Source of the DNA: a virus
Lineage: Duplodnaviria; Heunggongvirae; Uroviricota; Caudoviricetes
IMG/VR virus record: IMGVR_UViG_2690316166_000011
Reading direction: 5' to 3' (one strand)
DNA length: 6,396 nucleotides
Shown: piece by piece, positions 1 through 6,396 of the stretch
Numbering within the stretch: position 1 is the stretch's first letter
How the letters are laid out: each line of letters begins with the position of its first letter
Translations under genes and position numbers: made by a program
Notes under the pieces: model-generated
The model's database searches: none
Seen by the model: only the letters and a program-made list of their open reading frames with translations
Told to the model about the DNA's origin: nothing

Positions 1-2105
<2,105 letters not shown>

Positions 2106-2113
<8 letters not shown>

Positions 2114-2510
2114 CTCTCTGTTTCCTTACTCTGTAATATGTTCCCTCTGTTGGTTTTGGTTGAAGTTCGAAACCATCATGATCAGCATTTACTCCAAGTA
2201 CCCGACCAGATGCCACTACTGCCATAATTAATGGGTTGTCAGGATCTAACCAGATATCACCGTCTATAGTGGCTTGTACTGGCTTACAGTACGCTTCAAC
2301 AATTTCCCCTGTATGGTTCCATCCTTCCTTGTTTAAACCTGCTATACCTTCTTTAATGCTCGAATACTGGCGATTAGTTAACTGTGTAGTACCATTAATT
2401 AAATCAATAAGGCGTAGTACTATAATGTTGCAATCGTTATCACCATACTTATATGGGTTATCAATTGAGTACTGAATAATACTCATTACTTCATTATGTA
2501 GATTTTTCAT
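2106..2510 (-). CDS. Small NlpC/P60-like tail protein (lambda gpK C-terminal-domain-like)
   Basis: 134-aa ORF at the gpK position, between the L-like and J-like genes. The motif GDNDCNIIV resembles the Cys-containing catalytic motif of NlpC/P60 peptidases (lambda gpK GVTDCYTLF), and GDIWL resembles gpK GDVLL. There is no JAMM/MPN HxH motif. The catalytic His is not clearly conserved. Start TAATG overlaps the upstream stop at 2508-2512. Confidence 0.4.
2123..2127 (-). promoter_or_regulatory. Shine-Dalgarno site (AAGGA) for the J-like tail tip gene
   Basis: Minus-strand sequence cagagtAAGGAaacagagagATG, with a 9-nt spacer to ATG 2113-2111. It lies inside the 3' end of the upstream gpK-like gene, consistent with translational coupling. 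Confidence 0.45.
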
Positions 2511-3133
2511 TACTTGTATTTCCAGTTCTGATTTTGATTAACTTGACCTAACAGACTAAAGTACTCATCATTTCTATAGTAAGATTGATATACTGAGTTG
2601 GCGGCAATTAATGCAGGTTGTCTGTCTAATTTCTTATAGACAGAATTCACATATATAGTCATTTCGTTTTGCTTCTGATTTGGATCAGTTACTGCCTGTA
2701 CATAGTCAATAAACCCCGTAAACATGAGCATTGAATCAATTACAGTACTATCATATGGATTGAGAATTACTAACTTGATATTCATCTGTGCATCTTTCAA
2801 GAAACCACCAAGGGCAAGAGCACGAACCGAGGCGTTTACATTGCTAATTTTAAAATTGATAGCATCATTAGACATGCCCTTTTGTTCAGAATATGAAGGT
2901 AATGAACCACTGATAATGTCGGGGAAACTTATGTACTTATAACCATCCAGATCTATATCAATTAGTGAATCCGTCCAGTGAAAACCATTAGTACCTTTTG
3001 GTAGTACATCAAAACAAGTAACATTAACGCCTAAGCTCATAATTTCCATTAGTGTTAATCTTGTCTTGGTTGTACCTCTGACTAACTTCCAGTACTTAAG
3101 AAGATTAGCATTAGTATATATACCTGAGTCCAT
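2510..3133 (-). CDS. Minor tail protein L-like (lambda gpL / GTA g13-like)
   Basis: 207-aa ORF whose start overlaps the Dit stop (TAATG at 3131-3135). From memory, the segment YKYISFPDIISGSLPSYSEQKGMSNDAINFKISNVNASVRALALGG resembles the lambda gpL region YQPYPIQGSGFELNGKGTSTRPTLTVSNLYGMVTGMAEDMQSLVGG. It lacks the C-terminal Cys cluster of lambda gpL. Confidence 0.5.
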   Translation of the reverse strand: MDSGIYTNANLLKYWKLVRGTTKTRLTLMEIMSLGVNVTCFDVLPKGTNGFHWTDSLIDIDLDGYKYISFPDIISGSLPSYSEQKGMSNDAINFKISNVNASVRALALGGFLKDAQMNIKLVILNPYDSTVIDSMLMFTGFIDYVQAVTDPNQKQNEMTIYVNSVYKKLDRQPALIAANSVYQSYYRNDEYFSLLGQVNQNQNWKYK

Positions 3134-3690
3134 TAGATGATATTCTCCGTTGCTTTCAATGTAATATTCATGATGTTCCCAATAGGCAATGAATAATCAT
3201 TGTCTGGATCTAATACAGCCTCGATCATGAGATTGTTATATTTGAGTGCTTCACTTGCCTGTACTGTATTTTGTAGAGCAGGGAAAATAGTAATTGAAGT
3301 ACTGGTACGTTCTACGATTCGATATAGCTTATTGTGATTGGAAAACTGTACCCACTCACCCACAGCTAATGTGTTAGTACTGATAGGTACAACCATATTA
3401 CCCGGTTTAGTGAGAGCAGTAGCGGTTACTGCACCAGTCTGTTTACCGTAATATGTACCTGCAAGCCCCAATGACATAGTGAAAGGTTTGCCCTGTGCAT
3501 ATTGAGCTAAAAAGCTATTCACTTCATTTAGTGATGCAGGATTAAAATTAAGGGTGAACTGAATTTGATAGTATTGAATTCCAGTACTTCTCATGATACG
3601 TTGACCTGTCCATGTTTGATTAGAATAGATCGGTTCAGTACTTTTAATTTGAAAGTTCGTTACTTTTATTTGATTTGAAAAGGATGCCAT
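3133..3690 (-). CDS. Distal tail protein-like (lambda gpM / Dit-like) minor tail protein
   Basis: 185-aa ORF that is the first complete tail gene after the tape measure gene on the same strand. It has a canonical SD (GAGG at 3698-3701, 7-nt spacer) before ATG 3690-3688, and a Dit-typical size. Family assignment is by position and size, not a computed alignment. Confidence 0.5.
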   Translation of the reverse strand: MASFSNQIKVTNFQIKSTEPIYSNQTWTGQRIMRSTGIQYYQIQFTLNFNPASLNEVNSFLAQYAQGKPFTMSLGLAGTYYGKQTGAVTATALTKPGNMVVPISTNTLAVGEWVQFSNHNKLYRIVERTSTSITIFPALQNTVQASEALKYNNLMIEAVLDPDNDYSLPIGNIMNITLKATENII

Positions 3691-3691
3691 T

Positions 3692-4264
3692 TTGTTACCT
3701 CGAATATCTTCTTTCTTTATTTATTTAAAAACCTCGATTCGTATTTTTTTTAACAGGCTTGATTGGCAGGCTGCATCCGTCATCGTTGCTATGTTGTTAT
3801 TTGCAGGCCAAATAGGCTATAACGCATATGATAAATGGAAAGAAAGTTCAGATGATGTTTTTAAGATGCGTGTAATCTTATTGAGCGAAATCAACAATAA
3901 CCTTTTAGCTCTTGCTACTGGTGGCGATGAGTCTCAGGTGTTAGGCACATATGAAATATGTATTCCTCTTCCAACTGAAGATACAGAAGCTATTAAAAGA
4001 GTAGCAACTGCCGTTTCTTATTTGCATGATGATGTATATTATTCCCAATTAGAAAAATTAGCATCACTCCCAAAAAAAGAAGTAGATGCCATCGTAAAGA
4101 GTTATTATTCATTATCGAGATTACGTACTCTTTCAACACAGCTTGCATACAATATTAAATACTCACCACCTAAAGTTAAATTATTGCGGGAAGAGTATTA
4201 CAATCTCTATACCCTTTCATCTTCTCTTTCACAATATTTGTCTTATCACACGGAAAATCCCTAA
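3692..4264 (+). CDS. Hypothetical protein with N-terminal hydrophobic membrane anchor; opposite-strand moron between tape measure and Dit genes; function unknown
   Basis: Open frame of 190 codons in AT-rich DNA, exactly filling the only gap in the minus-strand operon. The maximal ORF starts at TTG 3692, with AGGA at 3681-3684 giving a 7-nt spacer. An in-frame ATG at 3791 (codon 34) gives a 157-aa product starting MLLFAGQIGY, and another in-frame ATG lies at 3866. The hydrophobic stretch AASVIVAMLLFAGQIGY is followed by a charged, probably helical soluble region. There is no lipobox Cys and no nuclease or other catalytic motif I recognise. Stop TAA at 4262-4264. Confidence 0.6.
   Translation: MLPRISSFFIYLKTSIRIFFNRLDWQAASVIVAMLLFAGQIGYNAYDKWKESSDDVFKMRVILLSEINNNLLALATGGDESQVLGTYEICIPLPTEDTEAIKRVATAVSYLHDDVYYSQLEKLASLPKKEVDAIVKSYYSLSRLRTLSTQLAYNIKYSPPKVKLLREEYYNLYTLSSSLSQYLSYHTENP
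3698..3701 (-). promoter_or_regulatory. Shine-Dalgarno site (GAGG) for the Dit-like gene
   Basis: Minus-strand sequence aagatattcGAGGtaacaaaATG, with a 7-nt spacer to the start codon at 3690-3688. Confidence 0.55.
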
Positions 4265-4274
4265 CTGGGCTTTC

Positions 4275-6396
4275 TTATGTATTACGTTTTTGACTACTTC
4301 TCACAGCTTGAGAAACACTATTGGCGTGTTTCTTAAGCATCTCATTAAATTTCTTGTCATCATCAGCTACATCACCCTGGATGATCAATGGTGCGTTAAC
4401 GGTAATATCACCTGAAGTACTTCCACCTTCTTGTTTATCCAAGAATGCTGTTAATTTCTTATTCGCTTCAGGCTGCACCACTCTCTCGCCCTGCTTAAGT
4501 ACAAATGATTTGTTGTCATAACTTGCTGGTAGTTCATCTACCCCGCCATGGAACTGACCAGCAGCAGCACCCTTTGCAGTACTAATAATCGACATACCAA
4601 GTGAAAGTACTTGTGCATAGTTTGCCAATGAAGCTGGCCAAGGGGTAGCGAGTGCTTGGGCCAATGCTGACTGAATTGAAAGTACTGTCTGTGCAATGCT
4701 TATGCTCTTACTTAGGGTAAATGCAGCTTGTGCAGCCCCACTACTTTCCCCAAACGCATCAACCATGCCCTGTGATAGTGACTGTGCAGTACTTGAGAAG
4801 ATACTTAACTGATCCTGTGCATTCTGGTTACTGATTTGGATGGCCTGTGCATTGTACTTTGCCGTGATCTCAGCTTTACGTTTCTCATAGTCCTCATGGC
4901 CTTTCAGCAACAACTCATTCTGCTGAAGTTCAGCATTCATAGCATCAGCGTTATCTTTCAACTTCTGATCGGTATCGTTATAGGCTAATGGATTACCACC
5001 ATTGATACGCTGATTCTGTTGCTGTGCCAGATACCCCTTCTGATTGTCATTGAGTAGACCGGAACCAATAAGAGCATTGGTATCTTTCAGACCCTGATTA
5101 GGATCTTGATAACCAACCATTGAATTCAGTAAATCAGTACGTTGTTTAGCACCATATGCAGTAGCGTTCTTTAGCATTTCATCAGGATTGATACCGAGTA
5201 CTTGAGCACTATCGGTGATGGTTTTAAGAAGTGCCTTTTGTTGTCTGTCGAACTGCTGTAGACGTACCTGAAAACCATCTTCCCCAACTTGAGCAAGAGC
5301 AGCTTCCAGATTACGTTGAGCCTGTAGGCGTTTTGCATCTGCCGCCTTTTGTGCCGCTTCTGCCTGTTTACGTTGTTGTTCTAACTTCTTCGCTGCATCT
5401 TCAGCTTCTTTTGCCTGATCANNNNNNNNNNNNNNNNNNNNNNNNNNNNNNNNNNNNNNNNNNNNNNNNNNNNNNNNNNNNNNNNNNNNNNNNNNNNNNN
5501 NNNNNNNNNNNNNNNNNNNNNNNNNNNNNNNNNNNNNNNNNNNNNNNNNNNNNNNNNNNNNNNNNNNNNNNNNNNNNNNNNNNNNNNNNNNNNNNNNNNN
5601 NNNNNNNNNNNNNNNNNNNNNNNNNNNNNNNNNNNNNNNNNNNNNNNNNNNNNNNNNNNNNNNNNNNNNGTACGTAATTTTTCCCAGATATCCAACATAT
5701 CCTGTAGAGAACCCTTGGAAGTTTTAATACGTTCATTCAGATCTTCAAACAAACCTGCCTCGTGAGGTTTTTGATTTGCAGCATCATAGACACTGTTCAT
5801 GGCATTAACTAAAGGTGATAGGCCATCAGCAATAGTACCTTTAATGCTGGTAGTAAGTTTCCCAAGGTTTTTATCGAATTCAGCATATTTTTCAGCAGCA
5901 TCATTAGTTACTTCAGCATTTTGTGACTGGATATAGGCTGTAGCTTGAGCCTCATTATTGAACTGCTGAAGAGTACTAATCATGTGGCTTGAGTCACTGG
6001 CTAACGTTTCCATTACGTTAACTATTTCACTCTGTGATTTACCTGCATCACGCATGGCGTAAAAGGTGTGGATCACAGCCTGCATACCACCATCAGCCTG
6101 TTTTAAGTACTTGTTATAGTCCTGTAGGTTGAGTCCATATTCTTTAAGATCATCGGATACACCACCGCCAGCACGAAAAGCATCACCGAGCTTATCCAAG
6201 GTATCCTTGTTGAAATCACCAAACTTATCAATCTCAAGACCGAGGCCACTAAACGCCGCTGATAGCTGTTGTAACTGAACCACGGACAATCCGGTACTCT
6301 TACTGATCTGGTTCATTTCACGCACATATTCACGTGATGATTCTACTAATGCTGCCAGGCCACCAATACCAATAGCCGCAGCACCCGCGATCCCGG
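4275..6396 (-). CDS. Tape measure protein, C-terminal portion (5' end beyond right window edge; interrupted by N-gap 5422-5669)
   Basis: Minus-strand frame is open from the right window edge (hand translation of 6326-6396 gives GIAGAAAIGIGGLAALVESSREYVRE upstream of the listed Met at 6325). Left of the gap, the frame of ORF 4275-5177 stays open up to 5421 (hand translation gives DQAKEAEDAAKKLEQQRKQAEAAQKAADAKRLQAQRNLEAALAQ). The protein has A/Q/K/E-rich coiled-coil character followed by a long hydrophobic Ala/Ser/Leu-rich segment, and sits immediately upstream of the tail-tip genes. The two ORF-track pieces (5381-6325 and 4275-5177) are in different frames only because of the N-run. Confidence 0.75.
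5422..5669. other. N-run (assembly gap or masked sequence), 248 nt, inside the tape measure gene
   Basis: Run of n characters. The tape measure reading frame differs on the two sides. Confidence 0.95.

Follow-up and report, generated by a model that had tools for sequence, protein, structure and literature searches.

A swappable antisense gene between the tape measure and Dit genes of an enterobacterial siphoprophage may encode an envelope-level phage exclusion protein

INTRODUCTION

Why would a tail module that is read from one strand carry, between two of its structural genes, a coding sequence on the other strand? The question is raised by a 6,396-nucleotide stretch of viral DNA (IMG/VR record IMGVR_UViG_2690316166_000011; referred to at its full length as the window). 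The window is a minus-strand tail module whose genes overlap start to stop (122..2113, 2106..2510, 2510..3133, and 3133..3690 in the open reading frame listing). The 584-bp gap from the stop codon of the tape measure gene to the start codon of the gene for the distal tail protein (Dit) is occupied by a plus-strand open reading frame of 190 codons, designated here ORF190 (positions 3692..4264; TTG start codon, TAA at 4262-4264). The stop codons of ORF190 and the tape measure gene are 10 nt apart, and ORF190 and the Dit gene diverge, with 1 nt separating their start codons.

A previous sequence-only reading of this DNA had placed an opposite-strand open reading frame between the tape measure and Dit genes, with coordinates that agree with the open reading frame listing, and had interpreted it as a moron encoding a membrane-anchored protein. 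Morons, in the sense of Juhala 2000 and Cumby 2012, are said to be extra DNA that is absent from close relatives at the same position. [quoted passage not shown] Here we consider whether ORF190 is a gene, how it is distributed among related prophages, and what its product might do.

RESULTS

The window and its flanking tail genes

The tape measure gene (4275..6396, minus strand; stop codon at 4275-4277) runs past the end of the window and was identified by a match to phrog_13674 (PHROGs; E=2e-36); its product has 737 amino acids in an S. sonnei contig (L010). The Dit gene (3133..3690, minus strand) encodes 185 amino acids and matched phrog_1302 (PHROGs; E=8e-17), with an additional weak match to the pb9 B-domain in the PHROGs and Pfam scans. 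Among sequenced phages the Dit protein had a single distant match. According to the open reading frame listing, the remaining minus-strand genes encode a 207-amino-acid protein (p207; 2510-3133), a 134-amino-acid DUF6950 protein (2106-2510), and a J-like protein (from 2113 downward).

The N-terminus of the J-like protein (window 1950-2113, minus strand) is a Gly/Ala-rich hydrophobic stretch. Central tail fibres do not usually begin in this way, and the stretch may be a gpI-like segment fused to the protein. The J-like gene is interrupted by an IS3-family-like element, whose final 33 nt make up positions 1-33. The window also contains runs of N at 158-223, 405-452 and, inside the tape measure gene, 5422-5669; in comparison with a complete chromosome (L067), their lengths differ from those of the sequence that they replace (for example, 66 N for 37 nt).

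ORF190 is almost certainly a real gene with a TTG start

Homologues of ORF190 that are 46-87% identical were found in Citrobacter, Enterobacter, Klebsiella, Dryocola, and viral contigs. Pairwise dN/dS values were 0.09-0.13 for the copies from Citrobacter and Enterobacter and 0.22 for that from Dryocola, and in four loci residues 25-33 (WQAASVIVA, upstream of Met34) differed almost only by synonymous third-position changes. ORF190 is under purifying selection, much of which could predate the decay of the prophages that carry it.

The start of the gene is conserved as well. In each of the seven distinct loci, codon 1 or codon 2 is a start codon, which is ATG in L032 and L038 and TTG in the other five. 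None has a further in-frame ATG, GTG, or TTG before the conserved membrane segment that starts at W25; the first additional in-frame ATG is codon 32 or 34, within that segment. A Shine-Dalgarno sequence, AAGGA (3680..3684, plus strand), lies 7 nt upstream of the start, inside Dit codons 2-4, and is conserved in 7/7 loci. These comparisons rule out the alternative 157-amino-acid form offered in the sequence-only reading, in favor of the 190-amino-acid form.

The ribosome-binding site of Dit (GAGG, 3698-3701) falls within ORF190 codons 3-4, and the first ~14 codons of ORF190 overlap both this site and a conserved box upstream of Dit that resembles TATAAATAC. This overlap accounts for the weak protein-level constraint on residues 1-24.

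Several features would be expected of a spurious open reading frame in an AT-rich spacer from which no protein is made: the TTG start, the AT-rich region, and the lack of a Pfam domain match. However, dN/dS values of 0.09-0.22, the nearly exclusively synonymous changes in the membrane segment, and a conserved start codon that switches to ATG in two loci are not those of noncoding DNA, and a single architecture is found over 11 representative clusters, with an AlphaFold2 model at pLDDT 76 (see below). That explanation is effectively refuted, with a negligible remaining probability, and ORF190 is almost certainly a real accessory cassette gene.

The junction between the tape measure and Dit genes is a variable slot

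A search anchored on Dit yielded 39 related loci from genomes and IMG/VR. The junction between the tape measure and Dit genes was empty (35-130 bp) in ~22 of these. Members of the ORF190 family occupied it in 6 (L028-30, L032, L038, and L043); with two further carriers, from Dryocola (L008) and Klebsiella (L009), the family is present in 8 of about 40 relatives. Five of the 39 loci (L025, L031, L041, L054, and L055) had instead a gene for a DUF6216 membrane protein of 208-228 amino acids (in L031, 5338-5964, with a family match of E=1e-23), and four (L033-35 and L057) had a gene for a DUF726 alpha/beta-hydrolase-like protein of 260-280 amino acids (for example, L033:5149-5937). In all three types of protein cassette, the gene runs antisense to the tail genes. 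The junction held a 54-amino-acid open reading frame in one locus (L060) and IS1 in another; in the latter, a viral contig, the element (InsA/InsB; L039:5236-6000) is inserted at the 5' end of Dit. No PADLOC model matched any of the three cargo families, and a literature search for DUF6216 returned one mention, in an unrelated paper on wastewater microbiology.

The exchange of cargo is precise. Homology of the window to L031, which has the DUF6216 gene in place of ORF190, is limited to 224-3695 and 4255-5421, with flanks that are 94% identical. Because homology stops at 3695 and resumes at 4255, the exchanged unit (3696..4254) is essentially the open reading frame itself. Compared with the window, intact prophages have flanking proteins that are 72-93% identical but an ORF190 that is only 46-63% identical, which indicates faster evolution or allele shuffling.

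These comparisons at the junction, which the sequence-only reading had suggested making, bear out its view of ORF190 as an opposite-strand add-on: the gene is missing from most relatives, other cargo is present in several, and the position is empty in ~22/39 loci and taken by a different gene in L031. In base composition, ORF190 (34.4% GC) does not stand apart as is said of morons, being close to Dit (36.9%) and p207 (34.6%); the tape measure gene has 42.9% GC.

Empty junctions have a common organization of their own. In L036 (5940-6000) and the equivalent region of about 15 other loci, a GC-rich hairpin directly follows the tape measure stop codon, and a TATAAATAC box comes ~35 nt before the Dit ATG; this region looks like an operon boundary. 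A degenerate copy of the box is located at window positions 3716-3730, and in ORF190-type loci it lies within codons 9-13 (I-Y-I/L-K). In the Dryocola locus, genes for AbiGi and a SegE-type GIY-YIG protein are found downstream of the tail module (L008:89-3293), a possible second accessory region in this prophage lineage.

Fixed slots with alternative short cassettes, in which defective elements keep intact cargo, have been described as P2/P4-like defense hotspots (PMC9122126; 10.64898/2026.02.27.708500). The junction described here resembles them in being fixed between conserved phage genes and in having many alternative cassettes; it differs in belonging to another phage lineage and another position, and in that its protein cargo consists of single genes, always antisense, that are absent from PADLOC. 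While prophage hotspot cargo is already known as a kind, this junction is a newly described hotspot with two sibling cassettes in addition to ORF190.

ORF190 is intact in decayed prophages

The nearest homologues of ORF190, in Citrobacter cronae (87%) and an Enterobacter sp. (84%), are in small chromosomal islands at unrelated sites. Nucleotide homology of these islands to the window extends only over 2874-4640 and 3281-4505, centered on the open reading frame, and the islands are two independent prophage remnants. The Dit, p207, and tape measure remnants in the two islands (1.8 kb, 70-79% nucleotide identity to the window) have 8 indels, 6 of which break the frame, whereas the two copies of ORF190 (1.15 kb, 83-85% identity) have none. 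With a uniform indel rate, the probability that 0/8 indels would fall in ORF190 is ~0.02. The possibility that ORF190 moved to these sites alone was rejected, as remnants of the flanking tail genes are present at both. The neighboring proteins, of 311-331 amino acids in the Citrobacter island and 320 amino acids in the Enterobacter island, are unrelated to each other, and therefore there is no conserved partner gene.

The window comes from Shigella sonnei and is 100% identical to complete chromosomes of this species. In four of these (L066-L069) the J-like gene, and in one also the tape measure gene, is split by insertion sequences at different sites, and the prophage is therefore defective in S. 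sonnei. ORF190 is 100% conserved in the complete S. sonnei genomes despite the insertion sequences that riddle the prophage. The element that carries ORF190 is an enterobacterial siphoprophage that is defective in S. sonnei. Neither the ORF190 nucleotide sequence nor a tblastn search had a match in 50,697 phage genomes, and megablast against complete E. coli genomes returned no match for the window or for the Enterobacter-type allele.

Short-read S. sonnei contigs (L010-L013; 38 'partial' protein records) stop 32 nt into ORF190, at window positions 3723-3724, and a Klebsiella pneumoniae contig (L009) ends at the equivalent codon 15. Such ends could arise if the Dit-side edge of the cassette coincides with a repeat boundary or, in some strains, has received an IS insertion.

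The location of ORF190 among tail genes, back to back with Dit and with its first codons overlapping the Dit ribosome-binding site, is what might be expected of a gene that benefits the phage in the lytic cycle by aiding injection or assembly, regulating lysis, or countering defense. However, ORF190 is missing from most relatives, whose tail modules are intact. The gene lies antisense to the late operon and has stayed intact in prophages with dead tail genes, and family members are also found in nonphage islands next to integrases. A lytic-cycle function thus has only a slim chance of being correct.

Candidate transcription signals

Because the start codons of ORF190 and Dit are back to back, a promoter for ORF190 must lie inside Dit. 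A candidate sigma-70 promoter, TTGAAT-17 nt-TACGTT (3574..3602, plus strand), is antisense within Dit codons about 30-39. It is the top-scoring sigma-70 site in 7/7 distinct type-A loci, including the two decayed remnants, in whose Dit sequences 12/12 and 11/12 hexamer bases are kept. The box was found in 3/5 DUF6216 loci, 1/4 DUF726 loci, and 0/22 empty junctions, as raw counts that ignore shared ancestry. In empty junctions, the -35 hexamer has lost its first T, or the -10 hexamer its A2 or T6, through synonymous changes in Dit (CAA to CAG, CGT to CGA). The association of the box with cargo is suggestive of a promoter for ORF190. A standard promoter and terminator scan of the plus strand called nothing.

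Between the convergent stop codons is a hairpin, GGAAAATCCC-TAACT-GGGCTTTC (4252..4274), with the ORF190 stop codon in its loop. It is common to the window and L031 and marks the edge of the cassette. The hairpin is weak (dG of -7.2 kcal/mol on the plus strand and -9.4 kcal/mol on the minus strand) and was not called in a strict terminator scan; it is possible that it is a bidirectional terminator.

The protein is predicted to be anchored in the inner membrane

The protein encoded in the window has only one strongly hydrophobic 19-mer, within residues 25-46 (WQAASVIVAMLLFAGQIGYNAY; 3764..3829, plus strand), and this predicted transmembrane anchor is conserved in the family. Its hydrophobicity is only moderate by hydropathy calculation (KD 1.52). 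All full-length members have a single hydrophobic segment, close to the N-terminus, and no plausible signal-peptidase site was found in the N-termini of the family. The flank preceding the segment has four K+R and one D+E in the window protein, and 3-9 K+R in nearly all full-length members with 0-2 D+E. By the positive-inside rule this net-positive flank predicts an N-in/C-out topology. The N-terminal hydrophobic anchor noted in the sequence-only reading thus extends, as a prediction from hydropathy and AlphaFold2, to the family as a whole as a single segment with a positive flank.

The remainder of the protein (residues 47-190; 3830..4261, plus strand) is predicted to form a periplasmic helical-bundle domain with near-invariant residues E66, N70, L126, and Y138. 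An AlphaFold2 model built on a 12-sequence alignment had a pLDDT of 76 and a pTM of 0.61; a model from a 5-sequence alignment (pLDDT 44) was unusable. In the model, a continuous helix (25-76) extends out of the membrane and is followed by bundle helices 98-125, 128-153, and 159-188, with a low-confidence loop (78-92) that bears a conserved C-x-PLP motif. Structure matches were generic four-helix bundles only, with no informative neighbor, and a PDB sequence profile search gave nothing consistent.

From these predictions, ORF190 is likely to be membrane anchored, and it is predicted to be a bitopic inner-membrane protein with a short basic cytoplasmic N-terminus, one transmembrane helix, and a four-helix bundle of ~145 residues in the periplasm. 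Homology to a tail structural protein or chaperone, which had been singled out beforehand as something to look for, was not detected among the tail protein or assembly-chaperone families in PHROGs or Pfam. Receptor masking, one of the functions listed in the sequence-only reading, would take place at the outer membrane, and it seems unlikely for a protein with an N-in/C-out inner-membrane anchor and only ~145 predicted periplasmic residues.

Distant relatives of ORF190 are found in anti-phage slots and islands

A profile search of 1.84 billion representative proteins recovered just 11 clusters in the ORF190 family, and a third profile search of the protein database added no members. The family corresponds to phrog_3829 (PHROGs, function not assigned), which matched 11/14 members (best E=1.6e-29; E=1e-5 for the window protein). 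Pfam and NCBIfam scans of all 18 members gave nothing consistent, a literature search by accession and PHROG identifier found nothing on the family, and ORF190, six other family members, and the P2-branch protein had no match in PADLOC-DB 2.0. The sole PADLOC match in the family, for P0008, was weak (E about 0.005) and was judged to be due to chance.

Distant members are located between gpG and gpFI in 13 P2-like phage records. These P2-branch proteins are ~20% identical to ORF190, and their genes are on the same strand as the tail genes. The gene was found in 203/5426 complete E. coli genomes (3.7%), and its product, WP_000494502, is annotated as 'hypothetical' or, in some sources, 'lysogenic conversion protein'. 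The gpG|gpFI slot, known as Z/fun and occupied exactly by these distant members, is in P2 itself the site of fun(Z), a lysogenic-conversion gene that blocks T5. Fun(Z) itself was rejected as a homologue of ORF190; it is an unrelated protein of 528 amino acids encoded on the opposite strand, in contrast to the P2-branch genes.

Other members adjoin the integrases of integrative islands, and some stand alone. One distant member (L014:7090-7962) is 38 bp downstream of a gene for a TIR protein (PADLOC PDC-S66, E=2e-112), and another (L018:6973-7797) is directly downstream of a gene for a DUF4238 protein, both at island positions adjacent to an integrase. DUF4238 is by itself sufficient for protection against T7 (PMC9122126). 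The AC1 TIR+TM system of Rousset et al. was considered as a representative of this family and rejected; it belongs to a different hotspot.

Proteins with a single transmembrane helix are frequent effectors of defense systems (PMC9122126), and together with the member next to a TIR protein, and with ClyA and designed membrane-lytic helical bundles among the fold matches, this could point to an abortive-infection or toxic effector that oligomerizes on infection, depolarizes or permeabilizes the membrane, and kills the cell before the phage cycle is complete. However, ORF190 is alone in the tail slot and its relatives are alone in most contexts, with no sensor partner; the close homologue P0016 has no TIR neighbor; and the fold matches are nonspecific, for a protein with one hydrophobic helix only. 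It therefore seems quite unlikely that ORF190 acts by abortive infection.

Prophages also carry genes that benefit the host in ways other than phage defense, for which Bor and Lom of lambda are models. ORF190 could be such a lysogenic-conversion factor, improving envelope function, stress tolerance, or colonization. Its intact state in the decayed remnants and in the IS-riddled S. sonnei prophages would fit, as would the lack of a match to defense models and the name 'lysogenic conversion protein' given to the P2-branch protein. However, the family is found in slots and islands that otherwise hold anti-phage genes (P2 Z/fun, and the TIR and DUF4238 neighborhoods), and in intact prophages ORF190 is the fastest-diverging gene of its neighborhood, which an arms race would explain better. 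Lysogenic conversion apart from defense is thus a rather unlikely explanation.

DISCUSSION

ORF190 appears to be an accessory gene that benefits the host, because it is swappable and nonessential, is kept in dead prophages, has relatives in anti-phage slots, diverges rapidly, and encodes a protein with a predicted envelope location. Sequence comparison and analogy with known systems suggest, as the best reading and with confidence that we would put at even, that ORF190 is a horizontally exchanged cassette for prophage-expressed exclusion of phages at the envelope. Some anti-phage function of the protein is similarly evenly poised between being right and wrong; that it blocks genome entry specifically is doubtful.

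In the proposed mechanism, ORF190 would be transcribed antisense to the tail genes in the silent prophage, probably from the sigma-70 box in synonymous positions of the neighboring Dit gene. The protein would be located at the periplasmic face of the inner membrane, where it may stop incoming phages at an envelope step, by acting on the tape-measure/ejection conduit or its inner-membrane partner. The outcome would be superinfection exclusion as with HK97 gp15 or P22 SieA, brought about by an unrelated protein. A domain-less, single-gene periplasmic protein anchored in the inner membrane would, by this analogy, most simply be a superinfection-exclusion factor. Location in the cell envelope is a trait of superinfection-exclusion proteins that ORF190 shares by prediction, through its helix and positive N-terminal flank.

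HK97 gp15 was the first-described moron; it mediates inner-membrane exclusion, affecting genome entry in a manner that is dependent on the tail region (PMC3594210). Like ORF190, it is encoded by an extra gene next to a siphophage tape measure gene, is absent from close relatives, and is a small inner-membrane protein. However, gp15 has 62 amino acids, belongs to the YebO family, and is encoded upstream of the tape measure gene in the orientation of the tail genes, whereas ORF190 is antisense and has 190 amino acids with a predicted periplasmic helical bundle. The two have no sequence relationship (hhalign probability 0.2%). The comparison with gp15 drawn in the sequence-only reading thus holds as a functional analogy and fails as a relationship between sequences.

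P22 SieA is a parallel in gene arrangement: its gene likewise is antisense, and it converges on gene 16, the last late gene to encode a DNA-delivery protein. SieA is a prophage-expressed inner-membrane protein, of which several very divergent sequence types are found at one locus (PMC10883804). It differs from ORF190 in having several hydrophobic segments and no soluble bundle, and in coming from a podovirus, and no homology between the two was detected (hhalign probability 0.4%).

Taken as a whole, the view that ORF190/phrog_3829 is a new single-gene periplasmic exclusion protein with an inner-membrane anchor, that the junction between the tape measure and Dit genes is an undescribed defense hotspot, and that its three cassettes are driven by a promoter in synonymous codons of Dit is tentative, and falls somewhat short of an even chance.

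Prophage exclusion genes that act at the envelope are poorly catalogued because they are small, evolve rapidly, and lack recognizable domains. ORF190 provides a concrete, testable candidate family with no known domain or defense-database entry, at a swappable position in a lineage of siphophages with almost no representation among sequenced phages. In about 4% of complete E. coli genomes, the classic Z/fun slot is occupied by P2-branch members of the family, and DUF6216 and DUF726 are two further uncharacterized candidates from the slot described here. The apparent promoter within synonymous positions of a structural gene illustrates, in a small way, how the expression of cargo may be wired into the phage backbone. 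If ORF190 is active, it would offer a new handle on the passage of siphophage DNA across the periplasm and inner membrane, and would matter when phages are selected for therapy directed at Shigella, E. coli, Klebsiella, and Citrobacter.
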